Notes: a model not told the origin generated them from the letters alone. A stretch of DNA of 64,000 bases from a virus (IMGVR_UViG_3300027973_000048:1-64000), one strand, 5' to 3'; positions 20,312 to 36,545 are shown, counted from the stretch's first letter. Numbers and translations: made by a program.

Positions 20312-20358
20312 AGCAGGCCATAATCTGCTCAATCGGTATTTGTCTGCCACAAAAGACA
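20312..20358 (+). promoter_or_regulatory. Twin 5-bp-stem / 8-nt-loop hairpins; candidate polymerase translational operator
   Basis: AGCAG-GCCATAAT-CTGCT and TGTCT-GCCACAAA-AGACA just before the AGGAG SD. Confidence 0.6.
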
Positions 20359-20369
20359 TAGGAGAGTTT

Positions 20370-23036
20370 ATGTACGTCGATGCTTATTTCGACCGTGACA
20401 ATGATATTGTCAGGGTTGTGGAACGTAACCGTGATGGTAAAAGAGAATATAAAGATATTCCTGGCCGTTACACGTTATATTATGATGATCCCAAAGGCAA
20501 GTACACTAGCATTTACGGCAATACCGTAAACAAAATCACTTGTAAAACACTAAAGGATTTTCATAAAGAACTAAAGATTAATTCAAATAAAAAAATCTAC
20601 GAAGCAGATATCAATCAAGTATTTGTCTGTTTGAGTGATAACTATCTCAACGCCGATGCGCCCAAACTTAATGTGGCATTTTTTGACATCGAAGTAGACT
20701 TTGATCCAGAACGTGGCTATGCAAGCCCAGATGATGCATTTATGCCTATCACTGCTATCAGTGTACACTTACAATGGCTAGATACACTGATTTGTTTAGC
20801 AGTGCCGCCCAAAGGTATGAGCGTTGAAAAGGCTGAGGAACTAGTCAAGGAACTTCCCAACACATATATCTTCAGTAATGAAGCTGATATGTTGGACACA
20901 TTCTTAAACTTAATTGAAGACGCTGACGTATTAACTGGTTGGAACAGTGAGGGCTACGATATACCCTACACTGTTAACCGTGTGACCAAAGCATTGAGTA
21001 AGGACGATACTAGACGTCTTTGTCTATGGAATCATTATCCTAGACGAAGAGAATATGAAAAATACGGCAAAAAAGCAGTCACTTATGATCTTGTAGGGCG
21101 TGTACACTTAGACAGTTTGGAATTATATCGACGTTACACTTATGAGGAACGTCATACTTACAGATTAGACGCCATTGGTGAAATGGAGATTGGTGAACGT
21201 AAAACTGTCTATGAGGGTACACTGGATCAACTTTATAACAATGACTTTAAAACGTTCATTGAATACAATCGTCAAGACTGTGCTCTATTAGACAAGCTAG
21301 ATAAAAAACTTAAATTTATCGACTTAGCTAATACATTGGCACATGAAAATACTGTGCTACTACAGACTACTATGGGTGCTGTAGCAGTTACTGAGCAGGC
21401 CATTATCAATGAGGCACATCGTAAAGGTGTGGTCGTCCCCAATAGAACTAAAATGAGCGAGCGTGAGGATACTGCGGCAGCAGGTGCTTATGTTGCTCAT
21501 CCCAAAGAAGGCATTCATGACTGGATTGGTTCAGTTGATATTAACAGTCTATATCCATCAGCCATTAGAGCACTTAATATGGGACCAGAAACTATTATTG
21601 GTCAATTGCGTCCCAATCTAACTGATCAATATATCTATGATCAAATAAACGATCATAAGAAAAGTTTTGCTGGTGCTTGGGAAGGTAAATTTGGTTCATT
21701 AGAATATGAAGCAGTAATGAACAAAGAGATTGGCACTGAAATTGTCATTGACTGGGAAAATGGAGAAACTGATGTAGTCAGTGCCGCTGAAACATATAAA
21801 CTAATTTTTGACAGCAATCAACCTTGGATGTTGAGTGCTAACGGTACAATTTTTACTTATGAAAAAGAAGGAGTTATTCCTGGCCTACTAAAACGCTGGT
21901 ATAGTGAACGTAAAGAAATGCAGGCCAAACTAAGGGAGGCCATAAATGCTGGTAACAAAATTGATGAAGAGTATTGGGATAAACGCCAATTGGTTAAGAA
22001 AATTAACCTCAATAGTCTTTACGGTGCTATTCTTAATCCTGGCTGCCGCTTTTTTGATAAGCGTATTGGTCAATCAACCACGCTCACAGGCAGACAAGTT
22101 GCCAAGCACATGGCTGCTAAGGTAAATGAAATCATCACAGGAAAATATGACCATGTAGGCAAAGCTATCATTTACGGTGACACTGACTCAGCATATTTTA
22201 GCGCATATAAAACACTAAAAAATGAAATTGAAAAAGGTACCGTACCTTGGAGTAAGGACAATGTCATCTTCCTATATGATCAAATTGCCGATGAAGTCAA
22301 CGGCACTTTTGCACAATTTATGTTGGATGCTTTTCATTGTCCAAAGAGTCGTGGTGAAGTCATTAAGGCGGGTAGAGAACTAGTGGCTACCAAAGGATTG
22401 TTTATTGCTAAAAAGCGTTATGCAGTATTATATTATGATAAAGAAGGCAAACGCACTGATGTCAATGACAAGCCTGGCAAGATTAAGGCCATGGGACTAG
22501 ACTTGAAGCGCAGTGATACTCCAGAATTTATTCAAGACTTTTTAAGCAAAGTCTTAGAAATGGTTCTAACTGGCAGCGAAGAACGAGAAGTCATTGACTA
22601 TATTAATGAATTCAGAACTGAATTTAAACTTCGTCCTGGTTGGGAGAAGGGCAGTCCTAAACGTGCCAACAATATTACTGAATATCAGATAAAAGAAAAC
22701 AAACCAGGTAAGGCCAATTTACCAGGGCACGTTCGTGCAAGCCTTAATTGGAACAACTTAAAAACTATGAACAGTGACAAATATTCCATGAGTATTACTG
22801 ATGGTGCCAAAGTTGTTGTGTGCAAACTAAAAAACAATCCACTAAATTATACTTCAGTGGCTTATCCAGTGGATGAATTGAGATTACCTCAATGGTTTAA
22901 GGATTTGCCATTTGATCACGATGGTATGGAAAATTCCATCATTGATAACAAATTAGAAAACTTAATCAGTGTGCTAGGATGGAATTTCCAAAGCACTGAA
23001 GAAACGAACACATTCAATAAGTTTTTTAATTTTTAA
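20370..23036 (+). CDS. DNA polymerase family B (T4 gp43-like)
   Basis: Exo motifs FFDIE, GWNS.GYD; pol motifs DINSLYPS, KxxxNSLYG, YGDTDS, KKRY; start chosen by SD at 20360-20364. Confidence 0.96.
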   Translation: MYVDAYFDRDNDIVRVVERNRDGKREYKDIPGRYTLYYDDPKGKYTSIYGNTVNKITCKTLKDFHKELKINSNKKIYEADINQVFVCLSDNYLNADAPKLNVAFFDIEVDFDPERGYASPDDAFMPITAISVHLQWLDTLICLAVPPKGMSVEKAEELVKELPNTYIFSNEADMLDTFLNLIEDADVLTGWNSEGYDIPYTVNRVTKALSKDDTRRLCLWNHYPRRREYEKYGKKAVTYDLVGRVHLDSLELYRRYTYEERHTYRLDAIGEMEIGERKTVYEGTLDQLYNNDFKTFIEYNRQDCALLDKLDKKLKFIDLANTLAHENTVLLQTTMGAVAVTEQAIINEAHRKGVVVPNRTKMSEREDTAAAGAYVAHPKEGIHDWIGSVDINSLYPSAIRALNMGPETIIGQLRPNLTDQYIYDQINDHKKSFAGAWEGKFGSLEYEAVMNKEIGTEIVIDWENGETDVVSAAETYKLIFDSNQPWMLSANGTIFTYEKEGVIPGLLKRWYSERKEMQAKLREAINAGNKIDEEYWDKRQLVKKINLNSLYGAILNPGCRFFDKRIGQSTTLTGRQVAKHMAAKVNEIITGKYDHVGKAIIYGDTDSAYFSAYKTLKNEIEKGTVPWSKDNVIFLYDQIADEVNGTFAQFMLDAFHCPKSRGEVIKAGRELVATKGLFIAKKRYAVLYYDKEGKRTDVNDKPGKIKAMGLDLKRSDTPEFIQDFLSKVLEMVLTGSEEREVIDYINEFRTEFKLRPGWEKGSPKRANNITEYQIKENKPGKANLPGHVRASLNWNNLKTMNSDKYSMSITDGAKVVVCKLKNNPLNYTSVAYPVDELRLPQWFKDLPFDHDGMENSIIDNKLENLISVLGWNFQSTEETNTFNKFFNF

Positions 23037-23039
23037 AAC

Positions 23040-23068
23040 TTGACAGAAGACTTTTTTCTAAATAAAAT
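23040..23068 (+). promoter_or_regulatory. Composite promoter: TTGACA-N17-TAAAAT with overlapping late TAAATA
   Basis: TTGACA 23040-23045, TAAATA 23059-23064, TAAAAT 23063-23068. Confidence 0.75.
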
Positions 23069-23085
23069 TAACAAAGGAGAATATT

Positions 23086-23817
23086 ATGATTAAAGACATT
23101 TTAACAGATATCGTAGCACATACTCATGCATTGGGGTTTTTAACAACCATTAAAATTACCAGTGATGACAAAGAAACTGTAATTGACGGTATCTCTGAAG
23201 ACAAAGGCGTGATCTTTAATGCCAAAATGAAAAATCCAGTAGCCGAATTTGAAGGCACGTTTGGCATGACTAATCTTGACAAATTAAATTTGCATTTGAA
23301 AAGTCCTGAGTACAAAGAAAACGCTACCATTGAAGTGGTAAAAAATTCTAAAGCTAAAGGTTCTGCACCAAGCAATTTATATTTTGAAAATGAAACTGGC
23401 GACTTTACCAATGAATTTAGATTCATGTCAACTCAGACAATTAATTCTGTTATTAAGCCACTTTCATTCAAAGGTGCAAAATGGGATATTTCATTTACCC
23501 CTAGCGTAATTGCTATTCAAAGATTGAAATTACAAGCCCAAGTACATTCTAGTGAAACAAAATTTACTACCACTGTGGATAATAAAAACCTTGTATGCAG
23601 CTTTGGCGATGCCAGCACTCATGCTGGTAACTTTATTTTTCAAACTAATGTTACCAAACTTAAAAATGAACTAAAATGGCCAATTCAACAAATTATATCA
23701 ATCCTAAGTTTGAGTGGTGACTGCACTATGCACATTTCAGATGAAGGACTTATGATGATCACTATTGACAGCGGCATTGGTGAATACAACTATATTTTAC
23801 CAGCACAAACAAAATAA
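23086..23817 (+). CDS. Sliding clamp (gp45-like)
   Basis: 243 aa, alternating beta/alpha pattern, YNYILPA end, directly after polB. Confidence 0.75.
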   Translation: MIKDILTDIVAHTHALGFLTTIKITSDDKETVIDGISEDKGVIFNAKMKNPVAEFEGTFGMTNLDKLNLHLKSPEYKENATIEVVKNSKAKGSAPSNLYFENETGDFTNEFRFMSTQTINSVIKPLSFKGAKWDISFTPSVIAIQRLKLQAQVHSSETKFTTTVDNKNLVCSFGDASTHAGNFIFQTNVTKLKNELKWPIQQIISILSLSGDCTMHISDEGLMMITIDSGIGEYNYILPAQTK

Positions 23818-23826
23818 TAACCCTTC

Positions 23827-25386
23827 ATGAACACTAACCTAACATCAACACAACTAGATTACGCTAAGTTTCTACCAGCAACTAGTACTTTTTATGCTAC
23901 CTTTATAGGTAAACAACGCTATTTCAATTACGTTGACCCAGCACGTATACCTAAAAGTTTTAAAAATGGCATAGAAAGTATGAACTATTTGGATCCAATA
24001 AAAGGTCAATTTTACTATGAATGGTGCCTTTATAGTGCTGGTCATGCTAATTTAGACTTGTCTAAACCCTGTGAAAGGGAGGACATGTTCCGTAATCGTG
24101 ATCGTAATACTAGTTGGGTGTTAGGTGACAGTGGTGGATTCCAAATTGGTAAGGGCAAATGGGAAGGCGATTGGAAAAACCCTAATTGCCCTAAGGCTCA
24201 AAAGAAACGCAGTCAAGTATTAAACTGGATGGACAGTTTAATGGACTATGGTATGAGTTTAGATATTCCCAGTTGGGTTGGGCGTATTCCAGAGAATGCT
24301 CAAAAAACTGGCATCAATGACTTTAACGAAGCTGTACAAGGTACTCATATCAATAATGAATACTTTATACGCAATAGAAATGGTCGTTGCAAGTTTTTAA
24401 ATGTATTACAAGGTGAAGATCACGGTCAAGCAGATAACTGGTATAAAGAAATGAAAAAATATTCTGATCCAAAACAATATCCAGACGCACACTTTAATGG
24501 GTGGGCAATGGGTGGTCAGAATATGTGTGACATTGATCTGGTACTAAGTCGCTTAGTTGAACTGCGATTTGACGGGTTGTTGGAAAAAGGTGTGCAAGAT
24601 TGGATGCACTTTTTGGGAACTAGTAAATTAGACTGGGCTGTCATGCTCACCGACATCCAACGAGCAGTGAGAAAATATCATAATCCTAACTTTACTATTA
24701 GTTTTGACTGTGCCAGTCCATTTTTGGCCACAGCAAATGGTCAAATTTATTATCAGACAGAAACTAAGGATAAATCCAAATGGACTTATAGAATGGGCGC
24801 TGGTGCTGATGATAAAAAATACAAAGCTGATCGTAGATTTTATAAAAACGCAGTGCTACAAGATAAAATTTTGGACATATTTGAAAGCAGTCCTATTATA
24901 GACAAGATTAGACTAAATGAAATCTGTGTTTATGGCCCGGGTGATTTGAATAAAGTTGGCCAAAGTAATAAAACCAGCTGGGATAGTTTTAGTTATGGCA
25001 TTATGATGGGTCATAATGTATGGCATCATATCAATGCTGTACAAGAAGCTAATAGACAATATGACTCAGGAATTAGTCCCAATATGCTATACCCTAAAGG
25101 ATTTACTTCAGAATCATTTAGAGACATTGTTGACGAAATTTTTGCTACTAGTGACAAAGGCAAAGCACTTGATCTAATCAAAAAAAAATATTCATATTTT
25201 TGGAAATACGTTATTGGTACTAGAGGAGTTAGCGGAGATCGTGCTGTTAGCCCAATTCCTAATTATAATAAATTTTTTACTGAATTGAATGTCGAAATTA
25301 AAGAAGAATTTGATGAGGAAGATGCACTCAAACTAGAAGCATTAGTAAATGAATTTGAACATGAGGAGAACAATGAAACCACTTAG
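23827..25386 (+). CDS. dpdA: TGT-fold transglycosylase, DpdA-like (7-deazaguanine insertion into DNA)
   Basis: LGDSGGFQ, LDIP, VLQG, GWAMGG, HFLG and SFDCASP motifs; clustered with folE and queE. Confidence 0.78.
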   Translation: MNTNLTSTQLDYAKFLPATSTFYATFIGKQRYFNYVDPARIPKSFKNGIESMNYLDPIKGQFYYEWCLYSAGHANLDLSKPCEREDMFRNRDRNTSWVLGDSGGFQIGKGKWEGDWKNPNCPKAQKKRSQVLNWMDSLMDYGMSLDIPSWVGRIPENAQKTGINDFNEAVQGTHINNEYFIRNRNGRCKFLNVLQGEDHGQADNWYKEMKKYSDPKQYPDAHFNGWAMGGQNMCDIDLVLSRLVELRFDGLLEKGVQDWMHFLGTSKLDWAVMLTDIQRAVRKYHNPNFTISFDCASPFLATANGQIYYQTETKDKSKWTYRMGAGADDKKYKADRRFYKNAVLQDKILDIFESSPIIDKIRLNEICVYGPGDLNKVGQSNKTSWDSFSYGIMMGHNVWHHINAVQEANRQYDSGISPNMLYPKGFTSESFRDIVDEIFATSDKGKALDLIKKKYSYFWKYVIGTRGVSGDRAVSPIPNYNKFFTELNVEIKEEFDEEDALKLEALVNEFEHEENNETT

Positions 25387-26266
25387 TCTTATCATAGGCA
25401 TGGGCATTGGAGAACTGTACCGATCTGTGCTAGAACAACTGGATCATAGTATCGTAACTGTGGATAGTGATGCCAATAAACATGCCGACTACACCACAGT
25501 AGAACAAGCTCTAGATGACTATGAACAGTTTGATACTGTGCATATTTGTACGCCCAATTATACTCACGAAGCTATTGCATACCTAGTAGCACCAAAAGCT
25601 AAGATAGTTTTTATAGAAAAACCAGGACTAATCACAGCAGATGCTTGGGACAAACTACTAGACACCAATCCCAACACAAGAATCATGATGGTGAAAAACA
25701 ATCAATATCGTGATGAGATTGAAGAATTGCAAACTCTTGCTGCTGCCAGTGTAATTGTCAATGTTAATTGGATTAATCATGATCGTGTACCTAATCCAGG
25801 AACTTGGTTTACTAACAAAGAATTGGCTTTTGGCGGAGTTAGTCGTGATCTTATGCCACATTTACTCAGCTTATGGATCGCTTTAGATTATAACTATGAC
25901 GAGGCAGATCGTGTACGCAAGGATGTTAGACAACGCTGGCAACTAACTGATATTACTAACACAAACTATGGAGCTGTCAACAAAGAAGGAGTGTATAATG
26001 TAGACGACTATTGTAGATTAGGCTTCTTTGGTGAAGAAACTATGTGGACATTCACAGCAGATTGGCGCAGTCTAAACGGAGATGACATACAAATTGAATT
26101 TGTACTGGATGGAGATAAGAAAATATCCAAACCATTAGGTCTTTGCCCCGAAAGTGCCTACAAAAAGATGATTGAAACTGCAATTGCTAACATTGACGAC
26201 AATGTATTTTGGAATGACCAACATTACCAAGATCAATGGATCCATAAAAAAATCGAGAAACTATGA
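25373..26266 (+). CDS. Gfo/Idh/MocA-family NAD(P) oxidoreductase
   Basis: IIGMGIG Rossmann start, ICTPNYTH, FIEKP, GG..RDLMPH; GAGGAG SD. Confidence 0.85.
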   Translation: MKPLSLIIGMGIGELYRSVLEQLDHSIVTVDSDANKHADYTTVEQALDDYEQFDTVHICTPNYTHEAIAYLVAPKAKIVFIEKPGLITADAWDKLLDTNPNTRIMMVKNNQYRDEIEELQTLAAASVIVNVNWINHDRVPNPGTWFTNKELAFGGVSRDLMPHLLSLWIALDYNYDEADRVRKDVRQRWQLTDITNTNYGAVNKEGVYNVDDYCRLGFFGEETMWTFTADWRSLNGDDIQIEFVLDGDKKISKPLGLCPESAYKKMIETAIANIDDNVFWNDQHYQDQWIHKKIEKL

Positions 26267-27165
26267 ATAGAATACTTGTAACTACAGGACAGGGCGAATT
26301 TGTGGAAAGCGAATATGCTTGCCCAAAACTTGACGCCAACGAAATCGAAGTCAAAAGCATTATGACCGGCGTTTGCCGCAGTGACATTGACATGATGCAA
26401 GGAAACTTTGGGCCACTACCTTTGAATATGCAAGGACACGAAGGTTTAGGCAAGGTCACAAAGGTTGGTACAGCAATTTTTGATGTAAGAGTTGGGGATT
26501 TGGTGGCTACTAGAGGTGAGCCTGCTTACGCTGATCAATATACAGTACGCCAATATGAATATGTAAATGTTCCAGAGGCACATCCACGATATATTATTGA
26601 ACCTGTGGCCTGTGGTGTTAACATTGTTAGCCAAGCACTATCAGAATTGCGATGGCGTCAAGGTGCAAATAGTAAATTATTAATACTGGGCAGCGGATTC
26701 CTAGCTTGGGTTGCTTATCATACTATTACAAATCACTATCACTTAAGATTTGACATTGATGTCATAGGCAATTCCAATCAAGACTTGTGGGGTGATCGAC
26801 TAATACCAAACACCGATAAACAATACGACGTCATAATTGATTTGAGCAGCAAAGGTGATGTATTTGATAAGGATTTATACAAAGATTGTGCCTTGATCAT
26901 TATGGCAGCTGCCAAAACACAACCAGTTAGTACTACTTTTGATAAAATGCTTTGGAAAGCTGTCACTATGGTATTTCCTAGTCCACGCAATTCCAAATTT
27001 CATCAATGTATGAGAGATGCTGTTTGGATGATTGAAAATGGCAAACTTGATGTTGACAAGTTCTGGACAAGAAGCTATAATCGTAACACGGAATGGCAAC
27101 AAGCATTTAAAGACGGTGCAGATCGTCCAGCAAATTACAGCAGAGGTTATATAGAATGGCAATAG
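26263..27165 (+). CDS. Zn-dependent medium-chain (alcohol/polyol) dehydrogenase
   Basis: GVCRSD, GHE, EP.ACG, ILGSGFLA. Confidence 0.85.
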   Translation: MNRILVTTGQGEFVESEYACPKLDANEIEVKSIMTGVCRSDIDMMQGNFGPLPLNMQGHEGLGKVTKVGTAIFDVRVGDLVATRGEPAYADQYTVRQYEYVNVPEAHPRYIIEPVACGVNIVSQALSELRWRQGANSKLLILGSGFLAWVAYHTITNHYHLRFDIDVIGNSNQDLWGDRLIPNTDKQYDVIIDLSSKGDVFDKDLYKDCALIIMAAAKTQPVSTTFDKMLWKAVTMVFPSPRNSKFHQCMRDAVWMIENGKLDVDKFWTRSYNRNTEWQQAFKDGADRPANYSRGYIEWQ

Positions 27166-27659
27166 ATACAGAAGGTAGACAAAACGTAGACTACTTTATT
27201 GGCGTGGAAGTAGAACATACTCCAATGAAAGGTGAACGCACATTGTTCGTAGTTGGTGTTAAACCCGTAGAAGAAATTGTACTAAAGATCAATAATCTTC
27301 GTCATATCTATCTTGGCACTAGTCAAAGTTTTAATCCACAAACTTACGAAGATTGGAAGTCGTGGGATCATATGATCAAGAGCTTGTTAGAACTGGGCTA
27401 TTGGGTGACCTTAGACTTTGATGCCAGCTATGCTCGTGACTTTCACGAAGAAGGCTGGAGTGAGAACGATCATTTCATTCCCATGATCAGTGTGAAACTG
27501 CCATACATTGGCTTGTTTAATTACAACACTACTGTTAAAATTGATGACACAACTTGGGGTGATACTAATCCCGGTGTGTGGACTCACAGTCTACATTCAC
27601 TGATGGATCGTAGTAACTTTACCAGCTGGGACAAATACACAGAGGATACACCAATATGA
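27156..27659 (+). CDS. Hypothetical protein in the DNA-modification cluster
   Basis: 167 aa ORF overlapping both neighbours. Confidence 0.7.
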   Translation: MAIDTEGRQNVDYFIGVEVEHTPMKGERTLFVVGVKPVEEIVLKINNLRHIYLGTSQSFNPQTYEDWKSWDHMIKSLLELGYWVTLDFDASYARDFHEEGWSENDHFIPMISVKLPYIGLFNYNTTVKIDDTTWGDTNPGVWTHSLHSLMDRSNFTSWDKYTEDTPI

Positions 27660-28213
27660 GTAAACCAAAAATTTGTAAAATAAAAAAAAGCTTAATTGGT
27701 ACTAAGGTACCACACCGAGAATCTGGACGCACTGGTCAATTCATTGAAGATGCCCATGCAAAATTAGGGATGCCAGTCCAACCAAATGAAGGTCCTGATT
27801 ATCCAGAGTTTGATTTAGAAATGAAGTCCAAATCAAAAGAATCTAAGTCAGCTTATAGTATTGGCACTATGAGTAGATACAATATTGTAAATACGCCATA
27901 TAGCCAATCGACTATAAAACGAAAGCTTCAACAACACTATCATGTTTATCATAAAGATGAAACTATCACAGATCAAATCACATATGATTTTAGGGCAGAT
28001 GATATCCAAGAAGAATTAGAACGAGCCTACGAAACTGCAAGACAAAAAATTATTAATGGGGATTCTGGCTACGTTTCTGGAACAATGTTTGGATACTTTG
28101 AAGAAAGATCTGATAGTCCTGACAATTATCAATTTAGGATTAGTGTAAAAGGAATGGAAGCACTTAAAAATTTAGAAAATCCAAAATTTAGAGAGTTTTT
28201 TGAATTCATATGA
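27656..28213 (+). CDS. Putative PD-(D/E)xK endonuclease, MutH/Sau3AI-like
   Basis: GRTGQFIE...GPDYPEFDLEMKS matches the G..G..xE...PD....xELK pattern. Confidence 0.6.
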   Translation: MSKPKICKIKKSLIGTKVPHRESGRTGQFIEDAHAKLGMPVQPNEGPDYPEFDLEMKSKSKESKSAYSIGTMSRYNIVNTPYSQSTIKRKLQQHYHVYHKDETITDQITYDFRADDIQEELERAYETARQKIINGDSGYVSGTMFGYFEERSDSPDNYQFRISVKGMEALKNLENPKFREFFEFI

Positions 28214-28599
28214 TTATTAAACAAGACGTTCGACCCAATAAAATGATTTGGGTGACCTTCCGTAAAGAAGGCATCCATTGTTATCCGGCAGCCGCCACAG
28301 ATCCCACACTGGCCACAGGTGATGAATATGATGTATCGTTTCTTGCTAACCCTCACCGTCATATATTTCATTTTTGTGTTTGGCTTTCAGTTACCCACAA
28401 TGATCGTGACGTTGAATTTATCCAATTCAAACGCTGGCTCGAAAACCTATTTGCCCAAGGGACTATGACCCTTGACTACAAGAGTTGTGAAATGATGTCA
28501 GATGAACTTTATGACATCATTCACACAAAGTATCCTGACCGTGAAGTCTGGATTGAAGTCTCCGAAGACGGAGAGAATGGTTCGTTTATTAAATATTAA
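28210..28599 (+). CDS. QueD/PTPS-fold paralog, DpdL type (putative CDG decarboxylase)
   Basis: H-x-Y/W, LANPHRHIF (LxxxHRHxF rather than QueD CxxxHGH), SCE, VSEDGENG. Confidence 0.7.
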   Translation: MIIKQDVRPNKMIWVTFRKEGIHCYPAAATDPTLATGDEYDVSFLANPHRHIFHFCVWLSVTHNDRDVEFIQFKRWLENLFAQGTMTLDYKSCEMMSDELYDIIHTKYPDREVWIEVSEDGENGSFIKY

Positions 28600-28621
28600 C
28601 CCTTAATTTTTAGGAAAGAAA

Positions 28622-28867
28622 ATGGCACAACCCGCATGGCTTAACAAGTATCTTACTTTTAAACCCGAAGTACACAAAATCTTCGATGATCTTGAAGCCT
28701 ATCACGACTGGTGCAGGTTTGAATTGGCACCTTTTAACGAAGCTGATCTTTACAAAAAGAACAGTCCAGTATATAGTGCTTACATGAACAGTAAACGACC
28801 ACGCAAGCCTTATCAAGGTAAAAATGCTGGACAAGGACGTAAGCGTGAGCAAAATATTCCTAGTTGA
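28622..28867 (+). CDS. Hypothetical protein
   Basis: AGGA SD; 81 aa. Confidence 0.65.
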   Translation: MAQPAWLNKYLTFKPEVHKIFDDLEAYHDWCRFELAPFNEADLYKKNSPVYSAYMNSKRPRKPYQGKNAGQGRKREQNIPS

Positions 28868-29945
28868 TCTCGAAGCCGTAGAGACCAGGTACACCGGGCA
28901 GTGGAAAATCCACTTGCCCGAAACTCTTAGGAAACTCGGACATGAAGTTGAAATTATTAGCGGGCCTAGCGATATCCCTAGTGCTACTACTCCCGGTGCT
29001 TTTCTTAACTTTGGTGGTACAAACATTTATAAGTCTGCCCAAGTTGAAAAAATGGGTCGTCTATTTTGCGCCGGAGCAGTTAAGCCTGGTGATCATTTTC
29101 TGTTTACAGATGCTTGGCACCCTGGAATCATCAATCTCAAATACATGTCTGAACTGCTTGGTGTGCCGGTAAAGACTCATGGTCTTTGGCACGCCGGCAG
29201 TTATGATCCCCAAGACTTCCTAGGCAGACTGATTGGTCCCCAATCTTGGGTAGTCTGTGCTGAGATGAGCTACTTCTATGCTTTTGACCATAATTACTTT
29301 GCCACTGAATTCCACGTCGAGCTATTCATGCAAGAATTACTCAATGGTGGGTTCAAAGGTGAAAATCCCTATTGGGAAGAGGATTGGGCTAATAGATACG
29401 ACAGTGGCAAAATTGTAAAGACTGGTTGGCCTATGGAATATATGCAAAAAATCCTAAAAGGTTATCGTAGTCTTCCCAAAAGAGATCTTATTCTATTCCC
29501 ACATCGCATTGCTCCAGAAAAACAAGTAGATATTTTTAGAGACTTGGCCAAGCAATTACCACAGTATGACTTTGTTGTTTGCCAAGATCATCAATTGAGT
29601 AAACATGAATATCATACCTTGTTAGCTGAGGCTAAGATGGTATTCAGTGCTAACTTACAAGAAACATTAGGTATTAGTTGCTATGAAGGTTCGGTATTAA
29701 ATGCAATTCCCATGGTACCTAATCGTCTAAGCTACAAGGAAATGTACTACGACGAATTTAAATATCCTACAGAATTTACTGAAAGTTTTGAATCCTACAA
29801 GCAATTTAAACATTTTTTGATTGAAGACATCGTAAATCATATGGAAAATTATGAAAGTAAAATAGCATTAGTAAGAAAACAAGAAAAGGATTTACATGAG
29901 CGATTTTTCTCCGCAACAGAATTATACAGTAACTTGGGACGGTGA
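28845..29945 (+). CDS. GT-B glycosyltransferase (GT4-like)
   Basis: FPHRIAPEKQ and QETLGISCYEG (E-x7-E); GTG start after AAGGA. Confidence 0.8.
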   Translation: MSKIFLVDLEAVETRYTGQWKIHLPETLRKLGHEVEIISGPSDIPSATTPGAFLNFGGTNIYKSAQVEKMGRLFCAGAVKPGDHFLFTDAWHPGIINLKYMSELLGVPVKTHGLWHAGSYDPQDFLGRLIGPQSWVVCAEMSYFYAFDHNYFATEFHVELFMQELLNGGFKGENPYWEEDWANRYDSGKIVKTGWPMEYMQKILKGYRSLPKRDLILFPHRIAPEKQVDIFRDLAKQLPQYDFVVCQDHQLSKHEYHTLLAEAKMVFSANLQETLGISCYEGSVLNAIPMVPNRLSYKEMYYDEFKYPTEFTESFESYKQFKHFLIEDIVNHMENYESKIALVRKQEKDLHERFFSATELYSNLGR

Positions 29946-30393
29946 TGTCCCCAGTCTAACCTCCAAAGATATACAGACATTAACTACTTTTGACATTAGT
30001 ACTTTAAGCAGTCTTGTCACTGACGATACAATAACCTTTCGAGATTACCAAAGTAATCACACTGCTGGATATAATTATGGCAGCTTTGGCAGTACCATGG
30101 CTGGTAATGCTTATACAACTGCCAGTGGGTTAACCTATATTAATACTATTAGCCCAAGCTCTATCACTCTCAATACTAGTTCAATTAGCGCTATTGGTAC
30201 TATGGATATTTCAACACTGCTCAATACTAGCTGGAGTTTGAATCAGGTCGAATGGGTTGATACTTGGCCCGATTTCAATAAAGTAAAAAATATGCGTGTC
30301 AAATATCCAGCTCTAGACAAAGCTATGGAAAAAGTTGTTTCCATTTACAATATGGTTAAAGATGATTATGATAGCCCAGTACCTAAAAAATAA
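29896..30393 (+). CDS. Hypothetical protein, Ser/Thr-rich N-terminus
   Basis: Low-complexity N-half; KYPALDKA helix at C-terminus. Confidence 0.6.
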   Translation: MSDFSPQQNYTVTWDGDVPSLTSKDIQTLTTFDISTLSSLVTDDTITFRDYQSNHTAGYNYGSFGSTMAGNAYTTASGLTYINTISPSSITLNTSSISAIGTMDISTLLNTSWSLNQVEWVDTWPDFNKVKNMRVKYPALDKAMEKVVSIYNMVKDDYDSPVPKK

Positions 30394-30844
30394 ATTCTTC
30401 GAAAAATTAGAAAAGTTAGGTCGTAAGAGAATTATTCTAGACCGAGCCAGTAAAGAACCATACTTGGAAAGATACTACGTCTTTCTAAAAGATCGTACTT
30501 GGTTCCCATTTAATGTGTTCATTCATAAATTTCTTAAGAGTGATCCAGATGATGTACACGATCATCCTTGGCCCTACGCTACACTAATCCTTAAAGGAGG
30601 CTACAATGAATGGGTTCCAACTTTTGACAAAGATGGTAAAAAGATTGGGGAAGTTTGTCACTGGCGTGGTCCTGGCCATTTTAGGTTTAGTAGTGCTAAT
30701 AGCTATCACCGTATTGAAATGGTTGAAGGGGTAGCTGCTTGGACAATGTTTATGCCTGGCCCACAAAAGAGAGAATGGGGATTTTTGGTTAAAGATAAAT
30801 GGATTCAAAATGAGCAATACTTCGAACTACGCAAATCAAGCTAG
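30362..30844 (+). CDS. Cupin-fold protein
   Basis: HDHPW...ILKGGYNE...HRIE metal-binding motifs; start uncertain. Confidence 0.75.
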   Translation: MIMIAQYLKNKFFEKLEKLGRKRIILDRASKEPYLERYYVFLKDRTWFPFNVFIHKFLKSDPDDVHDHPWPYATLILKGGYNEWVPTFDKDGKKIGEVCHWRGPGHFRFSSANSYHRIEMVEGVAAWTMFMPGPQKREWGFLVKDKWIQNEQYFELRKSS

Positions 30845-31196
30845 CATTATGGGAGTTCCTACTATGGGAACTATTACCACCACTAATAATACTGGTGGAA
30901 ATTTTTTAATTAGCAATCCACACGGACATGGAAACCGTTGGGGGAGCGCAATCGGCCAGAGTGAAGCACTTCGAATCTATGATACCAATCCCCCTCAATT
31001 AGAAGTTAAAGGTAAGATGACGTTAAACGGACGTGACATGGAAGAACGGTTAGATGCAATTGAAAAAGTCTTGCTTATTCCTGAACGTGATGTTAAACTA
31101 GAACAGAAGCACCCCAAGCTGAAAAAACTCTACGACGAGTATATGGCAGCATTGGGCAAATATAGAACATTCGAATCACTGAAAGGAGACGAATGA
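30810..31196 (+). CDS. Hypothetical protein
   Basis: 128 aa; C-terminal KHPKLKKLYDEY helix. Confidence 0.6.
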   Translation: MSNTSNYANQASIMGVPTMGTITTTNNTGGNFLISNPHGHGNRWGSAIGQSEALRIYDTNPPQLEVKGKMTLNGRDMEERLDAIEKVLLIPERDVKLEQKHPKLKKLYDEYMAALGKYRTFESLKGDE

Positions 31197-31570
31197 TGTC
31201 AGATTTAACAAGGGCCTTAGATGATGGACGAGCTCCGTGGAAAGAAATTGAATACAGAACCAAAAACTACTGGGTCTTCAAAGACGCTTACCCGGTATCG
31301 GAAGGACATTTGCTATTTGTGCCAACCGAAAAAAAACTTGAAAACTTGGTTGCGTGTTTCCAAGCAGCCTACAAGTTCGGCTACGACGGCATGGTCCAAG
31401 AAAAATGGCATGGCTTTAACGTCGGGCAAAACTGTGGCGAGGCTGCTGGCCAAACCGTAAGCTATCCCCACGTACATTTGATCCCACGTCGTACAGGTGA
31501 TGTCAAAGATCCCAGCGGCGGTGTTAGACATGTCATACCAAAAAAAGCCAAATACAAACGTGAAAAATGA
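31193..31570 (+). CDS. HIT-family nucleotide hydrolase
   Basis: DAYPVSEGHLL, AGQTV.YPHVHLIPR. Confidence 0.88.
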   Translation: MMSDLTRALDDGRAPWKEIEYRTKNYWVFKDAYPVSEGHLLFVPTEKKLENLVACFQAAYKFGYDGMVQEKWHGFNVGQNCGEAAGQTVSYPHVHLIPRRTGDVKDPSGGVRHVIPKKAKYKREK

Positions 31571-31757
31571 AGTAAAGATTGTTTGGGCTAATCAAGACAA
31601 ATTTTGGTGGAATGAAGCCTGTGCCCAAGTACTTGAAAGATTTGGATTACCCGGTAAAAGATATACAACTTCTGTGAACGAAAATAATCTAATCTTCAAG
31701 TTTCATTCTGATCATGATGCCACCATGTGTCGTCTGGTATTAAGCGAATACATATGA
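31560..31757 (+). CDS. Hypothetical protein
   Basis: Fills gap; start uncertain; ATGA overlap with next gene. Confidence 0.55.
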   Translation: MKNEVKIVWANQDKFWWNEACAQVLERFGLPGKRYTTSVNENNLIFKFHSDHDATMCRLVLSEYI

Positions 31758-32245
31758 ATTTGATAGAATATAAAAATAAAAAGTACCCAGCATTCCAAGC
31801 TGAAGGAAATGCTAGCCAATTTGCCATACCTTTTGCTCTACACTTTTGCAAAGGAGATGGGTTTGATGTTGGATGCAATAGAATTGAGTGGGCATTCCCT
31901 ACTGCTCAACCAATTGACTTAAAAATTGACGACGAATGGAACGCCTTACATTTGCCAGATAGGCAAGTTGATTATATATTTTCTAGCCACTGTCTTGAAC
32001 ATTTACCCAATTGGGTTGATGCACTAGACTATTGGGGTTCCAAACTTAAAGTTAATGGTACGTTATTTTTATACCTTCCAGACTATAGCCAAGAATATTG
32101 GCGACCTTGGAACAATAGACAACACATTCATGTATTAGACCCCGTCATAGTCAAAGACTACCTAATAGATAGGAAATATACAAATATTTTTTATAGTGGT
32201 AGAGACTTAAATGACAGTTTCATGATTGTGGCTGAAAAATCTTGA
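31754..32245 (+). CDS. Class I SAM methyltransferase-like
   Basis: GFDVGC, DYIFSSHCLEHL, LKVNGTLFLYLP. Confidence 0.8.
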   Translation: MNLIEYKNKKYPAFQAEGNASQFAIPFALHFCKGDGFDVGCNRIEWAFPTAQPIDLKIDDEWNALHLPDRQVDYIFSSHCLEHLPNWVDALDYWGSKLKVNGTLFLYLPDYSQEYWRPWNNRQHIHVLDPVIVKDYLIDRKYTNIFYSGRDLNDSFMIVAEKS

Positions 32246-32270
32246 CACTTGCCTAAATAACCTATATAAT
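32242..32270 (+). promoter_or_regulatory. Composite promoter: TTGACA-N17-TATAAT with TAAATA in the spacer
   Basis: TTGACA 32242-32247, TAAATA 32254-32259, TATAAT 32265-32270. Confidence 0.85.
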
Positions 32271-32290
32271 ATATCAAACAAGGAATTGGT

Positions 32291-32986
32291 ATGGCTGAAA
32301 AAAATCTAGCACAAGTATTGCGTGATCGTATGCGCCGAGAAGGTAAAAGGTTCTGGGCAGGCGATAATATATCCGATTATGTGGAAGAACCTTTCAAAGA
32401 TGAACTAATTAATGATGCAACCAAAGCATTTGAAAACGTGCTGGACGCATTACTGATTGATAGAGAAAATGATCCTAATAGTAAAGGAACTGCTCGTCGA
32501 TTGGCCAAAATGTACTTTAACGAAATCATGGCAGGACGCTATGATCCCGCTCCCGACGCCACTAGCTTTCCTAACGAAGGCGAAGATGCCTATACTGGCA
32601 TGTTGGTAGTACGCAGTGAACTTCGTAGTATGTGTAGCCATCATCATCAACCAGTTAATGGTGTTGCTTACATAGGAATTATACCAAATGGCAAAGTCAT
32701 CGGATTATCAAAATACACAAGAATTGCTCAGTGGTGTGCCCGTAGAGGAACACTCCAAGAAGAACTGTGCAACGACATCGCTAAAGAAATTAGCCGCGCA
32801 ACCAACAGCAAGAACGTTGGGGTCTATATCCAAGCCACACATGGTTGTTGTGAAAACCGCGGAATTATGGCGCATTCCAGTCTCACACAAACCACAGTCT
32901 TAAAAGGTGCATTCAAAGACGATGTGGGTACTAAGAAGGAGTTTTTTGATAACATTAAACTCCAACAAGATTTTGCACCAAGATAA
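32291..32986 (+). CDS. folE: GTP cyclohydrolase I
   Basis: SMCSHH, IGLSK, LQEE, HGCCENRG. Confidence 0.95.
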   Translation: MAEKNLAQVLRDRMRREGKRFWAGDNISDYVEEPFKDELINDATKAFENVLDALLIDRENDPNSKGTARRLAKMYFNEIMAGRYDPAPDATSFPNEGEDAYTGMLVVRSELRSMCSHHHQPVNGVAYIGIIPNGKVIGLSKYTRIAQWCARRGTLQEELCNDIAKEISRATNSKNVGVYIQATHGCCENRGIMAHSSLTQTTVLKGAFKDDVGTKKEFFDNIKLQQDFAPR

Positions 32987-32999
32987 CTAAGGAAATATT

Positions 33000-33155
33000 A
33001 TGGAAACTCAAAAGAAAGTTGGAACTTGTGGCTGCGGACGTAGCCCTACTGGTGATTGTATTGGCTGGCATGGTCTTACAGAAACTATGTATCAAACCAA
33101 ATTAGCTGAATGGCAACATAAAGAACAAGTTAAACAAGAACAGACAAAATCATGA
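33000..33155 (+). CDS. CDGSH/NEET-like Fe-S microprotein (51 aa, not in ORF track)
   Basis: TAAGGA SD; METQKKVGTCGCGRSPTGDCIGWHG...; C-x-C-x2-S-x4-C-x-G-x-H. Confidence 0.72.
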   Translation: METQKKVGTCGCGRSPTGDCIGWHGLTETMYQTKLAEWQHKEQVKQEQTKS

Positions 33156-33442
33156 TAAACTGGCTTCGACTAAAAATTCTTCATTGGCTGGAGACCGATC
33201 CTGTAGTAGAGACAAAACTGGCTAGACAAACAATCGGTCGTGACATTGAGGATCGTAGCGTTAGTGATGAACCTGTGATGAGGTTTAAAGTCTATACTGC
33301 TATTGGTGGAAGGATTGTAGAGTTTAGTCGCCATGATCGAAGAAATGATCGCCATGAGCATACTCTTTATATCATTAACAACGATGAAGATTTTGGACAA
33401 CGCATTGCTAAAATTGCCACATTGGAGAACTTGAAAAATTGA
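33152..33442 (+). CDS. Hypothetical protein
   Basis: ATGA-coupled 96 aa ORF. Confidence 0.7.
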   Translation: MINWLRLKILHWLETDPVVETKLARQTIGRDIEDRSVSDEPVMRFKVYTAIGGRIVEFSRHDRRNDRHEHTLYIINNDEDFGQRIAKIATLENLKN

Positions 33443-33780
33443 ATGCAGAAACGCCAGCTAAAGGTGTACTTCTAGTTAATGACTGGGGTTCTAATAAAAT
33501 GTATAAAACTGTTTGTGAATGCGGCAGTGATGATTGTACTCATACAATTGACATTGAAGCAGAGGAAACAGAAGTAACCGTGACCATTTATACTAGAACT
33601 AAAACTAACTTTTGGTCTAAATCGCGCTGGTATCATATTTGGCAACTTTTAACTAAAGGTTATACCGATTATGAAACTTCCATCATTATGAGCAAACAGG
33701 TTGCTCTTAACTATGCATTTGTGTTACAATCAGCTGTTAAGGACATAGAGGAGTTTCAAAGTGAAAGACTCAATAAATGA
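33439..33780 (+). CDS. Hypothetical protein with CxC-x4-C-x-H motif
   Basis: CECGSDDCTH. Confidence 0.65.
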   Translation: MNAETPAKGVLLVNDWGSNKMYKTVCECGSDDCTHTIDIEAEETEVTVTIYTRTKTNFWSKSRWYHIWQLLTKGYTDYETSIIMSKQVALNYAFVLQSAVKDIEEFQSERLNK

Positions 33781-34039
33781 AGTAATGAGTATCCTCCAAG
33801 AGGAATGTGCAGAAGTTATTCAAGCTGTTAGCAAGATTAACCGATTTGGCATGGATAATAGCAAACCTGGCGAAGTCAAAACTAATCGACAACACTTAGA
33901 AGAAGAACTAGGTGATTTAGCTGCTATGATTACTCTACTAGAAATGAACGGTGTAATTAGTCAATTTAATATTGAAAAAGCCAAACTGGCTAAATTTGAC
34001 AAACTTAAAAAATGGTCTACCATATATGAGCAAGATTAA
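33761..34039 (+). CDS. MazG-like NTP pyrophosphohydrolase
   Basis: QEECAEVIQA and LEEELGDL acidic motifs. Confidence 0.8.
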   Translation: MKDSINEVMSILQEECAEVIQAVSKINRFGMDNSKPGEVKTNRQHLEEELGDLAAMITLLEMNGVISQFNIEKAKLAKFDKLKKWSTIYEQD

Positions 34040-34883
34040 AGTCAGCGAACTGTTTTATTCAATCCAAGGGGAAGGACGCTATATGGGTGTCCCTTCTGTA
34101 TTTTTACGCACATTTGGCTGCAACTTTACCTGTGATGGGTTTGGCATGCCACGTGGTGAAAAAAGCCTTGAAAGAGTTAATGTGGCACTAATAGATGAAG
34201 AACAACCTTTTAAAAACTATAAAGACTTGCCTCTTGTATCCACGGGCTGTGATAGTTATGCTAGTTGGGATCCTAACTTCAAGCATCTTAGCCCTTTATA
34301 TGATGTGGGTAATCTTGCAAATGATATTGTGGACCTACTACCACACAAAACGTGGAACGAAGAACACCTTGTCATCACAGGAGGAGAACCTCTCTTAGGT
34401 TGGCAACGTAGCTATCCTGAACTGCTAGACGTAGATTCAATGATAAGATTGCGTCACTTAACTTTTGAAACTAATGGCACTCAAAAATTAACTTCAGATT
34501 TTAAAAATTATTTGATTAATTGGAGTGATAGGCTTCATAAACAAAGAGAAGTCACATTTAGTGTCAGTGCCAAACTGCCAGTGAGTGGAGAAAAGTGGGA
34601 AGATGCTATACTTCCCGAAGTAGTGTGTGACTATGAAAAAGTCGGTTATACTTACTTGAAATTTGTCATAGCAAGCGAAGAGGATTTACTAGATGCACGT
34701 CAAGCAGTCAAACAGTATAGAAATTATGGCTTTAAAGGCCCTGTGTATATTATGCCTGTCGGCGGCATTGAGCGGGTGTACAGTCTTAATAATAGGCGTG
34801 TGGCAGAAATGGCAATGCGAGAAGGATGGCGGTATAGTGACCGACTTCAAGTGCCATTATTTAAAAACGAATGGGGAACCTAA
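34026..34883 (+). CDS. queE: 7-carboxy-7-deazaguanine synthase (radical SAM)
   Basis: ELFYSIQGEG, FLRTFGCNFTC...GCDS, ITGGEP, FETNGT, YSDRLQ. Confidence 0.92.
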   Translation: MSKIKVSELFYSIQGEGRYMGVPSVFLRTFGCNFTCDGFGMPRGEKSLERVNVALIDEEQPFKNYKDLPLVSTGCDSYASWDPNFKHLSPLYDVGNLANDIVDLLPHKTWNEEHLVITGGEPLLGWQRSYPELLDVDSMIRLRHLTFETNGTQKLTSDFKNYLINWSDRLHKQREVTFSVSAKLPVSGEKWEDAILPEVVCDYEKVGYTYLKFVIASEEDLLDARQAVKQYRNYGFKGPVYIMPVGGIERVYSLNNRRVAEMAMREGWRYSDRLQVPLFKNEWGT

Positions 34884-35551
34884 TGAAAACACTAACTGAG
34901 ATTTTTGAAAATGACCTAACTTTCCACTGTGACAAGTATGGATCATATTTGCCTGTATATGAACAATACTTTGAAAAATATCGAGATCGTCATATCAACT
35001 TTGTGGAAGTTGGCATCCAAGGTGGCGGCAGTTTGGAAATGTGGAAAAAATATTTCGGTGACAAAGCCAAAATTATTGGCATTGACATTGATCCCACTGT
35101 ATATGAAAGACAAACTCCTGGCACAGAGATTGCCATTGGTAATCAAGAAGACGTAAACTTTTGGAATATGATACTGCCTAAAATTGGTCCAATTCATGCA
35201 TTCATTGATGACGGTGGTCACCAAATGAAACAACAGATTAATACCTTATTAGCAGTATGGCCCAAAATTGTCAATGGCGGCGTATACATTTGTGAAGACA
35301 CTCATACTAGTTATTGGTCTGACTGGGGTAACGGTGTAGGCAGAGAATGGACCATGATGGAATTTGCCAAAAAGATTCTTGACATGGTAAATTTTGTACA
35401 CTGGCATGAATACCCAGAAGACTTGGGTGTATTAAGTAAATTTCAAGATATTGGTTCAGTTTGTTTTTATAATAGCATGATAGTGTTTACTAAAGGCCAA
35501 CCAGAATGGATCAGACCAAAACCCTATCCAAATCCATTAGCAGGTCGATGA
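34883..35551 (+). CDS. Class I SAM methyltransferase (sugar O-methyltransferase-like)
   Basis: VEVGIQGGGS, GIDID, IDDGGH, GGVYICEDTHTSY. Confidence 0.82.
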   Translation: MKTLTEIFENDLTFHCDKYGSYLPVYEQYFEKYRDRHINFVEVGIQGGGSLEMWKKYFGDKAKIIGIDIDPTVYERQTPGTEIAIGNQEDVNFWNMILPKIGPIHAFIDDGGHQMKQQINTLLAVWPKIVNGGVYICEDTHTSYWSDWGNGVGREWTMMEFAKKILDMVNFVHWHEYPEDLGVLSKFQDIGSVCFYNSMIVFTKGQPEWIRPKPYPNPLAGR

Positions 35552-36099
35552 TGAGAAAAATATTAGTATTAGGTTGTGGCAAAAAAACTCTTTTAGATTT
35601 TGAGCATGACGAGGTAGTCACTGTAGATTTAAATGAAAGTGTAGGAGCCACAGTAGTTCATAACTTAGATGCATATCCATGGCCTTTTGATGACAACACT
35701 TTTGATGTAATTTTAATGGATAATGTTTTAGAACATTTGACCGACATAGTTAAAACTATGGAAGAATTACATAGAGTCAGTAAAAATAATGCCACTATTA
35801 CTGTTATAGTTCCCTATTTTCGTAGCAAATGGGCCTGTGTAGACCCAACACATAAACATTTTTTTACTGCTGACACATTGAGCTATTTTATCGATGGTCA
35901 CATATATCATGAAAGATATGCCTATAGCACTTGTAAATTTCGAATGCTCAGTAAAAAATTTAATGAAGGCATTGATCAAACTTGGTTTCAACAACTGTTA
36001 ATTCCTATAGCTGAACAATATACTGAATTTTATGAAAATAAAATTAGTCCTATTTTTCCATTGGAAACATTAACATATCATTTGGAAACTATAAAATGA
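35548..36099 (+). CDS. Class I SAM methyltransferase (type 11-like)
   Basis: LVLGCG, VHNLD.YPWPF, NVLEHL, DPTH. Confidence 0.82.
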   Translation: MMRKILVLGCGKKTLLDFEHDEVVTVDLNESVGATVVHNLDAYPWPFDDNTFDVILMDNVLEHLTDIVKTMEELHRVSKNNATITVIVPYFRSKWACVDPTHKHFFTADTLSYFIDGHIYHERYAYSTCKFRMLSKKFNEGIDQTWFQQLLIPIAEQYTEFYENKISPIFPLETLTYHLETIK

Positions 36100-36545
36100 A
36101 AAATTTCTTAAAAAGAATCTTTGGTATTACTCGAATGGAGGAATCCATTGCGGAAATACAAAAATTAAAGGAAGCTAAAGAAGCCGAAGTTCAAAGAGCA
36201 GAAGAAGCTGCTAAACGAGCATTGGAAGAGGAAGCTATTGCTAAAATGACTCCAAAGGAACGTGCCTCACAACGTGGCGAACCTTGGGTAGGTGTGCTGG
36301 AAACACATATCAATAAGGAAAACGTTCGTAATGGCTTCTTTGAGCTTGACTGGAACGATGAATTCATTGTACAATTGAGGAAAGCAGGATATGGATACGA
36401 CGCTGATCCACAAGAAGAAATTGTGGATCGCTGGTTCCGTGATCTTGCTCGCAACGTGCTAGCCGAAGAAGGTCAGGACGTTGGTCGTGGTGCTGGATAT
36501 ATTAACATAAACAAACTTGGTGGCGGACGTTCCGAAGTCAAATGA
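36096..36545 (+). CDS. Hypothetical protein
   Basis: 149 aa; FELDWNDEF motif; coiled-coil N-terminus. Confidence 0.7.
   Translation: MKNFLKRIFGITRMEESIAEIQKLKEAKEAEVQRAEEAAKRALEEEAIAKMTPKERASQRGEPWVGVLETHINKENVRNGFFELDWNDEFIVQLRKAGYGYDADPQEEIVDRWFRDLARNVLAEEGQDVGRGAGYININKLGGGRSEVK

Follow-up and report, generated by a model that had tools for sequence, protein, structure and literature searches.

A predicted DpdL-type 7-deazaguanine DNA-modification module with a conserved glycosyltransferase gene in a freshwater jumbo phage

We analyzed a stretch of 64,000 nucleotides of viral DNA (IMGVR_UViG_3300027973_000048:1-64000, hereafter the window), and particularly its region 23,040-36,099, where genes for 7-deazaguanine DNA modification stand together with genes for a glycosyltransferase (GT), oxidoreductases, and methyltransferases (MTases). 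Judging by its gene content, the locus is a DpdL-type module for 7-deazaguanine modification of DNA, associated with replication, and the GT is, by its conserved linkage, a core member of modules of this type. Its product is tentatively read as a 7-deazaguanine-type base, glycosylated and in this phage also O-methylated; this reading, to which we give somewhat less than an even chance, is drawn from family membership and conserved gene linkage.

The window is part of a 74-kb IMG/VR viral contig with a CheckV completeness of 21%. The contig is a fragment of a freshwater jumbo phage, the genome of which was estimated at ~350 kb; 18 studies (2017-2025) of freshwater and lake metagenomes yielded near-identical DNA. 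The nearest cultured relative is Pseudomonas phage PA5oct, and a DNA-level search of the locus against the phage collection gave no match. Two sets of loci were used for counting. The first consisted of viral loci with a DpdA-like gene and enough downstream sequence (n = 38), which were searched with the GT family profile. The second came from a scan seeded with DpdL, which returned at least 586 stretches; counts were taken from the best 80 loci, among which 63 were informative for the GT, 62 had enough upstream DNA, and 27 were long. A single broad phage group, in which synteny is conserved, accounts for most of the counted loci.

Core enzymes of the module

The gene product described in an earlier, sequence-only note on this DNA as a QueD paralog was confirmed as a real gene and could be assigned more specifically: its LxxxHRHxF signature and its homology to proteins of phages ACP17 and phiST identify it as a predicted DpdL, the proposed decarboxylase of 7-carboxy-7-deazaguanine (CDG). 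DpdL was described as a QueD paralog in which CxxxHGH is replaced by LxxxHRHxF and was proposed to decarboxylate CDG to 7-deazaguanine (DG); 2'-deoxy-7-deazaguanosine (dDG) fully replaces G in Cellulophaga phage phiST (PMC10516641; Cui, Hutinet et al., NAR 2023). In the window protein, the motif reads L45-ANP-H49-R50-H51-I-F53, and L45, H49, R50, H51, and F53 were invariant in 22 family members. In tblastn searches, it matched ACP17 (52%, 4e-34) and phiST (34%, 4e-8) over more than 90% of its length. Comparison with canonical phage QueDs gave an hhalign probability of 13%, the family profile found nothing significant among PDB sequences, and in the nearest named Atlas cluster (score of 0.94, 204 shared features), PTPS was annotated on only 20% of the members.

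Neither QueC nor canonical QueD was found in the 74-kb record, itself a fragment of the estimated ~350-kb genome. In near-complete relatives (316-345 kb), canonical QueD was encoded downstream, at a distance of 11-14 kb from the DpdA-like gene, and QueC was represented by weak partial matches or by none. Since the signature and homology of DpdL are present and QueC and canonical QueD are absent, the route most likely leads to CDG and then to DG, not to preQ0. Taken together, the transglycosylase fold described below, the DpdL signature, FolE, and QueE bear out the assignment of the locus to 7-deazaguanine DNA modification. The QueE assignment comes from PHROG; the NCBIfam QueE models gave 5e-15 to 2e-9, which is under the cut-offs of those models. 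In a complete relative (G003, 26883-27440), a gene far from the module encodes a QueC-like PP-loop protein of 195 aa that has CxxCxxC at its C-terminus.

The 519-aa DpdA-like protein was modeled with AlphaFold2 from an alignment of 24 relatives (pLDDT 86, pTM 0.84). In Foldseek, ranks 1-49, that is all matches listed, were tRNA-guanine transglycosylases (TGTs; E of 3e-7). An all-against-all structural search returned ArcTGT (Z 18.5), QTRT2 (18.0), bacterial TGT (17.1), the DNA preQ0 insertase DpdA (7ui4; Z 16.9, rmsd 4.3, 304 aligned residues), and Cap10 (14.8); generic TIM barrels came next, with Z values of at most 11.9. In the family alignment, xDSGGFQI was conserved (one row is gapped there), and every row had ISFDCASPFL or a variant of it with Y or S, i.e., (F/Y)D(C/S)ASP. 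These DSGGFQ and FDCASP motifs are the putative equivalents of the sites of the TGT catalytic Asp residues; both Asp motifs were aligned when the family profile was compared with the TGT-domain protein of Vibrio phage GR7B (hhalign 93.6%). The model thus places the protein in the TGT superfamily, as a divergent enzyme that in three lineages is associated with deazaguanine genes. More than 7900 metagenomic homologs were found, none of them named. The Pfam TGT model PF01702 matched neither the protein nor a six-frame translation of the 74-kb record, and the family profile found nothing significant among PDB sequences; Pfam as a whole gave no match for the proteins starting at 23827, 28210, and 28824 (DpdA-like, DpdL, and GT, respectively). 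Relation to the TGT-like enzymes of ACP17 and Xanthomonas phage X1 was not detectably close (low hhalign probabilities), and the value obtained against phiST DpdA3 was 1.2% (E of 0.042), a weak test with a single-sequence target.

Two side observations concern this family. In Vibrio phage 2.275.O (330216-337242), a DpdA-like homolog adjoins an Amidoligase_2-like gene, queF, a YhhQ-type transporter gene, queC, a GATase gene, and folE; this phage couples the DpdA-like transglycosylase family to a different deazaguanine route. At residues ~479-488 of the DpdA-like protein (window 25260-25290), the motif [FY]-x-x-[LFM]-F-[DE] followed by an acidic tail was seen in ~23 of 24 sequences, and the C-terminus of the DNA polymerase (window 23000-23036) reads FNKFFNF; they may be peptides of a common type at which the clamp-like protein docks.

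The AlphaFold2 model of the 373-aa GT was of moderate quality (pLDDT 69). Foldseek matched it to glycogen synthase, BshA, and PimA (probability of 1.0, 1e-8), and the structural search gave Z values of 14-15.7 to GT4 retaining enzymes over residues 5-373. The protein contains E280-x7-E288; E280 is replaced by D in a second subfamily, and E288, R228, and K233 were invariant in 16 members. By analogy with GT4 enzymes, functional roles may be proposed for the E-x7-E motif and the basic residues with which the C-terminal domain begins. Glycos_transf_1 of Pfam matched 10 of the 16 family members (best value of 4e-6; 0.062 for the window GT itself), and the family profile found nothing significant among PDB sequences. 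Two candidate relationships were rejected. Regarding QTMAN/GTDC1, the QTMAN_N domain (PF12038) was unmatched in the 74-kb record at E<=10, in four near-complete relatives and PA5oct at E<=1, and among the 16 GT family members at E<=1. Regarding the alpha-glucosyltransferase of phage T4, the hhalign probability was 0.1%.

The earlier note had regarded the GT as an extra of this phage and had made linkage to dpdA in related genomes one of the tests of its proposal. Such linkage was found in all counted loci, and the GT appears as a core member of a widespread DpdL-type module rather than as an extra. A GT family member was located 0-6 kb after the DpdA-like gene in 38/38 viral loci of the first set; in the second set, the GT followed dpdL in 63/63, and the DpdA-like gene and u167, a conserved protein encoded at 27156-27659, lay upstream in 62/62. 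Because most counted loci come from one broad phage group, cultured phages provide the more telling evidence, and the linkage held in five cultured lineages. The gene orders are queD-x-folE-u167-dpdA-GT-dpdL-queE in ACP17, folE...GT-tgt-dpdL-queE in Xanthomonas phage X1, pol-clamp-'glycosylase'-dpdL-GT-x-folE...queE in phage Phosso (with the DpdA-like gene ~170 kb away), and dpdA-GT-dpdL in PA5oct; in Burkholderia phage BCSR5, the GT lies within ~3 kb of dpdL. The GT-DpdL pair is thus kept together while gene order and DpdA type change. In Phosso, the slot of the DpdA-like gene between the clamp-like gene and dpdL is filled by the 'glycosylase'-annotated protein (149815-150348), and the DpdA-like gene itself adjoins primase and helicase genes.

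A second, independent hint of sugar involvement came from MT226, the 226-aa MTase encoded at 34871-35551. In phmmer, it matched residues 201-372 of MycE (PDB 3ssm, 8e-19) and residues 166-310 of the demethylmacrocin O-methyltransferase TylE (8ia9, 2e-16). MycE and TylE methylate a sugar already attached to a macrolide. MT226 has no N-terminal auxiliary domain of the kind found in these ~400-aa macrolide enzymes, and the templates aligned in their C-terminal half only. One of the additional MTases pointed out previously is therefore of the sugar O-methyltransferase type by its matches. Homologs of MT226 adjoin GTs in mycobacteriophages; in the phage collection, none were found beyond mycobacteriophages, a Microcystis phage, and two uncultured records, and a search in five further relatives (G005-G009) found none, a weak negative.

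Proposed pathway and alternative explanations

The folds, families, gene linkage, and strain variation were established in this analysis; in the pathway built on them, we infer the chemical steps, the acceptor atom, the identity of the sugar, and whether insertion or glycosylation comes first. CDG would be made from GTP by FolE, QueE, and a QueD activity; canonical queD was not found in the 74-kb fragment and, in relatives, lies 11-14 kb downstream. DpdL would then strip the carboxyl group from CDG to give 7-deazaguanine, and the TGT-fold DpdA-like enzyme would swap guanine in phage DNA for it. Glycosylation of the deazaguanine, as the free base or already in DNA, would fall to the GT4-type GT, most obviously at the electron-rich C7 that the action of DpdL leaves open. 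In this lineage, the Gfo/Idh/MocA and Zn-MDR pair may tailor the sugar or its nucleotide donor, and the MycE/TylE-like enzyme may O-methylate the attached sugar, the number of such MTases varying between near-identical strains. The MutH-like nuclease candidate may cut unmodified DNA. A more detailed version, in which guanine is replaced by a sugar-bearing 7-deazaguanine, possibly C7-linked, with a strain-variable O-methyl pattern from a swappable MTase cassette, is put forward with greater reserve, as a possible but doubtful outcome.

The glycosylated and/or methylated deazaguanine suggested in the earlier note gains weight from the GT linkage and the sugar O-methyltransferase match, while the presence of a sugar or methyl group on the base is still something that we infer. 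The behavior of PA5oct DNA, which resists several restriction enzymes and is cut by nucleases targeting modified G (PMC12191111), is consistent with G modification and was counted in favor of this reading.

Several points weigh against a sugar on the base. Expression of dpdL with dpdA in E. coli yielded no dDG, and the decarboxylase activity of DpdL is itself only proposed (PMC10516641). The locus counts are not independent events because most loci share one phage group and its synteny. A sugar O-methyltransferase need not act on DNA, since the mycobacteriophage homologs of MT226 adjoin GTs without the module. Nor is the GT needed for functional modification: phiST, with DpdL but without a GT, produces plain dDG. 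7-Deazaguanine offers neither a hydroxyl nor an amine side chain, and thus no classical acceptor; C7 as the acceptor would require C-glycosylation, which GT4-type enzymes are not known to perform.

The phiST case, the mycobacteriophage GT-MT226 pairs, and the common ancestry of most counted loci also favor the strongest alternative, which we consider rather unlikely: that the module makes plain dDG (or dCDG), as in phiST, and that the GT, oxidoreductases, and MTases act elsewhere (for instance, on a small molecule, a glycan of the host surface, or proteins of the virion), merely sharing an early/middle transcription unit. The coming and going of accessory enzymes between strains fits this explanation as well. 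However, the GT was present in every locus with enough sequence and stays near dpdL through the rearrangements seen in ACP17, X1, and Phosso; in ACP17, the compact block from queD to queE that includes the GT gene has, apart from pathway genes, just one small open reading frame (ORF) and u167.

We regard it as distinctly improbable that the GT and DpdL work ahead of DNA synthesis, on a nucleotide precursor or the free base, the sugar being transient or serving in precursor handling, and that a finished unit (e.g., an unusual deazapurine glycoside, processed) enters DNA via the TGT-fold enzyme or the polymerase. Such a precursor route would agree with the phosphoribosyltransferase (PRTase) and epimerase-like gene of the PA5oct module, with the frequent presence of nucleotide-handling enzymes (MazG-like and HIT), and with the failure of dpdL and dpdA alone in E. 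coli; no PRTase was found in the 74-kb record, though, a TGT-fold exchange enzyme was encoded in every locus, and all known phage deazaguanines are, in the published view, inserted into DNA after replication. Finally, FolE, a PTPS-family protein, and reductases are pterin pathway enzymes, and UDP-glucose:tetrahydrobiopterin glucosyltransferase was among the GT-B matches (Foldseek rank 50; Z 14.0 in the structural search), yet production of a glycosylated pterin comparable to cyanobacterial biopterin glucoside, instead of a DNA base, is very improbable, given that with QueE the pathway is committed to CDG, the motif of the T-fold protein is that of DpdL and not of PTPS, the TGT-fold base-exchange enzyme is always present, and the pterin GT scored about the same as the rest of the more than 40 GT4-type matches.

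Gene run and accessory genes

Between 20340 and 43457, every long ORF was on the + strand, and between 23086 and 37510, neighboring ORFs mostly overlapped by 4-50 bases (Table 1). The co-directional, overlapping run described previously was thus recovered with all its named genes in place; u81 and the four rows labeled simply as small ORFs were missing from that description. The run is flanked by replication genes: the PolB gene lies upstream of the module in relatives as well, and the RNase H/FEN-like gene comes after queE-u149 there.

Table 1. Features of the locus, with positions counted from the first base of the window (SAM, S-adenosylmethionine; NTP, nucleoside triphosphate)
Feature	Position	Strand	Basis
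Family B DNA polymerase (PolB), upstream anchor	20340-23036	+	Pfam DNA_pol_B 3e-36, exo domain 7e-19
Clamp-like protein	23086-23817	+	phrog_12062 (no functional annotation); hhalign 99.9% to Phosso clamp-annotated protein
Predicted DpdA-like TGT-fold enzyme, 519 aa, divergent subfamily	23827-25386	+	AlphaFold2 model, Foldseek, motifs
Gfo/Idh/MocA-type NAD(P) oxidoreductase, optional	25349-26266	+	Pfam GFO_IDH_MocA 1e-6
Zn-dependent MDR dehydrogenase, optional	26263-27165	+	Pfam ADH_N 5e-10, phrog_2640 3e-14
u167, conserved core protein	27156-27659	+	Conservation across loci
MutH/Sau3AI-like PD-(D/E)xK nuclease candidate	27656-28213	+	PD..ExK motif GPDYPEFDLEMK read by eye
Predicted DpdL (QueD paralog)	28210-28599	+	LxxxHRHxF signature; phrog_17812 3e-30
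u81, small conserved ORF (81 aa) between dpdL and GT	28622-28867	+	Present in 27/27 long loci
GT-B (GT4-like) glycosyltransferase, 373 aa	28824-29945	+	AlphaFold2 model, Foldseek, family profile
Small ORF	29896-30393		
Cupin, cysteine-dioxygenase (CDO)-like	30335-30844	+	phrog_4786 2e-35; HDH..H motifs
Small ORF	30810-31196		
HIT-family nucleotide hydrolase/transferase	31193-31570	+	Pfam HIT 1e-8, NCBIfam HinT 9e-11
Class I SAM methyltransferase, rare	31727-32245	+	Methyltransf_23 2e-9
FolE, GTP cyclohydrolase I	32291-32986	+	Pfam 5e-41, NCBIfam FolE 7e-41
51-aa Cys-rich ORF (CGCGRSPTGDCIGWH) after folE	33000-33155		
Small ORF	33152-33442		
Small ORF	33439-33780		
MazG-like NTP pyrophosphohydrolase	33761-34039	+	phrog_4856 5e-26
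QueE, CDG synthase, radical SAM	33972-34883	+	phrog_2076 1e-48
MT226, MycE/TylE-type sugar O-methyltransferase domain	34871-35551	+	PDB 3ssm 8e-19, 8ia9 2e-16; phrog_21658 3e-20
Class I SAM methyltransferase, strain-variable	35506-36099	+	Methyltransf_11 3e-9
RNase H/FEN-like replication nuclease, downstream anchor	36542-37510	+	48% to PA5oct 'RNaseH ribonuclease'

The naming of the first gene of the module as a sliding clamp was only partly supported. The protein is homologous to the Phosso 'sliding clamp beta', but no match was obtained to T4 gp45 (hhalign probability of 0.5%), a profile search against PDB sequences gave nothing significant, and the PA5oct homolog carries the annotation 'structural protein'. 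Protein u167 was found in 62/62 loci with enough upstream DNA and has homologs in ACP17 (9e-22) and PA5oct (hhalign 100%); Pfam, PHROG, NCBIfam, PDB, and Atlas gave no assignment, with only sub-threshold peptidase look-alikes in Atlas (0.89). The u81 ORF lies 0.2-0.6 kb after dpdL in the long loci; it has a basic tail, and its end overlaps the start of the GT gene. The cupin was encoded in 24 of the 27 long loci and the HIT protein in 14. The Cys-rich ORF after folE was 100% conserved in close strains and ~64% in more distant relatives and, because of this conservation, is probably a real gene.

The oxidoreductases, nuclease, and MTases lie where they had been reported, but they are optional, strain- or clade-variable accessories and not fixed parts of the module. 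The Gfo/Idh/MocA protein has GMGIG, EKP, and DxxxH motifs intact, as read in the sequence, and always co-occurs with the Zn-MDR (11 of the 27 long loci). A search for the latter found none in four near-complete relatives (G001-G004) or in ACP17, a weak negative. In PA5oct, the Zn-MDR homolog is 37% identical and belongs to a Gfo-MDR-u167 trio, contiguous at 250869-253146 and 27 kb from dpdA-GT-dpdL; the Gfo-like copy of this trio has lost the EKP motif, and its N-terminus is without the glycine-rich loop. The nuclease candidate had no HMM match. It is sporadic in relatives, always at one site between u167 and dpdL, and a lake-metagenome contig joining 27653 to 28208 corresponds to the loss of exactly this gene.

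The slot between queE and the next gene held zero to three MTases: one, two, or three in differing combinations where flanking genes were ~86-99% identical, and none in more distant relatives (flanking genes ~60-80% identical). The MTase encoded at 35506-36099 was present or absent among the former relatives, and one strain type carried a second copy of the MycE-like enzyme, 63% identical, in the slot. Homologs of the MTase encoded at 31727-32245 were found only in three related loci (L004, L005, and L007); it was absent from all 27 long loci of the second set, and a lake-metagenome contig joins 31710 to 32252, skipping it. These two MTases gave only generic class I methyltransferase matches, and by-eye reading of all three MTases revealed no usual motifs of DNA amino- or C5-methyltransferases.

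In a lake metatranscriptome, eight short contigs were identical to stretches within 23599-37179 that belong to the clamp-like, DpdA-like, Zn-MDR, u167, GT, small-ORF, and RNase H genes. They are weak evidence for expression in situ, DNA carry-over being possible.

Implications and comparison with known systems

The known phage 7-deazaguanines (preQ0, preQ1 and its methyl and formyl forms, G+, ADG, CDG, and DG) carry, to our knowledge, no sugar. In our literature search, all glycosylated DNA bases described were pyrimidines, and no paper was found describing a glycosylated deazaguanine in DNA or a DpdA-DpdL-GT module. If the proposed reading is correct, the product would be without precedent in DNA as a glycosylated purine analogue; a GT fixed in the DpdL-type module, which occurs in cultured phages, would extend DNA glycosylation to purine analogues. 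With the strain-variable O-methyl pattern of the more detailed version, the DNA would have a variable 'glycan coat' shaped by an arms race with modification-dependent nucleases. Such a GT would also bear on why dpdL and dpdA alone gave no product in E. coli and on the identity of the G modification in PA5oct, a therapy-candidate phage, and would provide further substrates with which modification-dependent nucleases and glycosylases could be studied. The MTase cassette forms a natural strain series in which the effect of small decoration changes on defence escape could be followed.

In phage T4, alpha and beta glucosyltransferases glucosylate 5-hydroxymethylcytosine in DNA. The parallel lies in a phage GT-B enzyme decorating a non-canonical base in the phage's own DNA, which thereby escapes nucleases; unlike in T4, the target would be a purine analogue that offers no hydroxyl group as a handle, and the fold matches of the window GT are GT4 retaining enzymes.

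With phiST, the window shares FolE, QueE, a MazG-like gene (which adjoins dpdL in phiST), a QueD paralog with LxxxHRHxF, a distant TGT-fold enzyme, the lack of QueC, and the proximity of the module to DNA polymerase genes. Genes for a GT, cupin, HIT protein, u167, oxidoreductases, and methyltransferases, all present in the window, are missing from phiST; its DpdA3 (259 aa) is half the length of the 519-aa window protein and shows no significant profile similarity to it, and phiST has a Pol III alpha-type polymerase instead of PolB.

ACP17 and PA5oct resemble the window in DpdL (52%), the GT family (36-41%), u167 homologs, and QueE. PA5oct also shares the DpdA-like family (36%), the Gfo-MDR-u167 trio, and the order of polymerase, clamp-like, and DpdA-like genes followed by queE and RNase H, whereas ACP17 has a TGT-like enzyme of another, barely related type. 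Both appear to lack MT226, since neither was among the phages in which the collection search found a homolog, and PA5oct adds to the shared gene set a PRTase and an epimerase-like gene.

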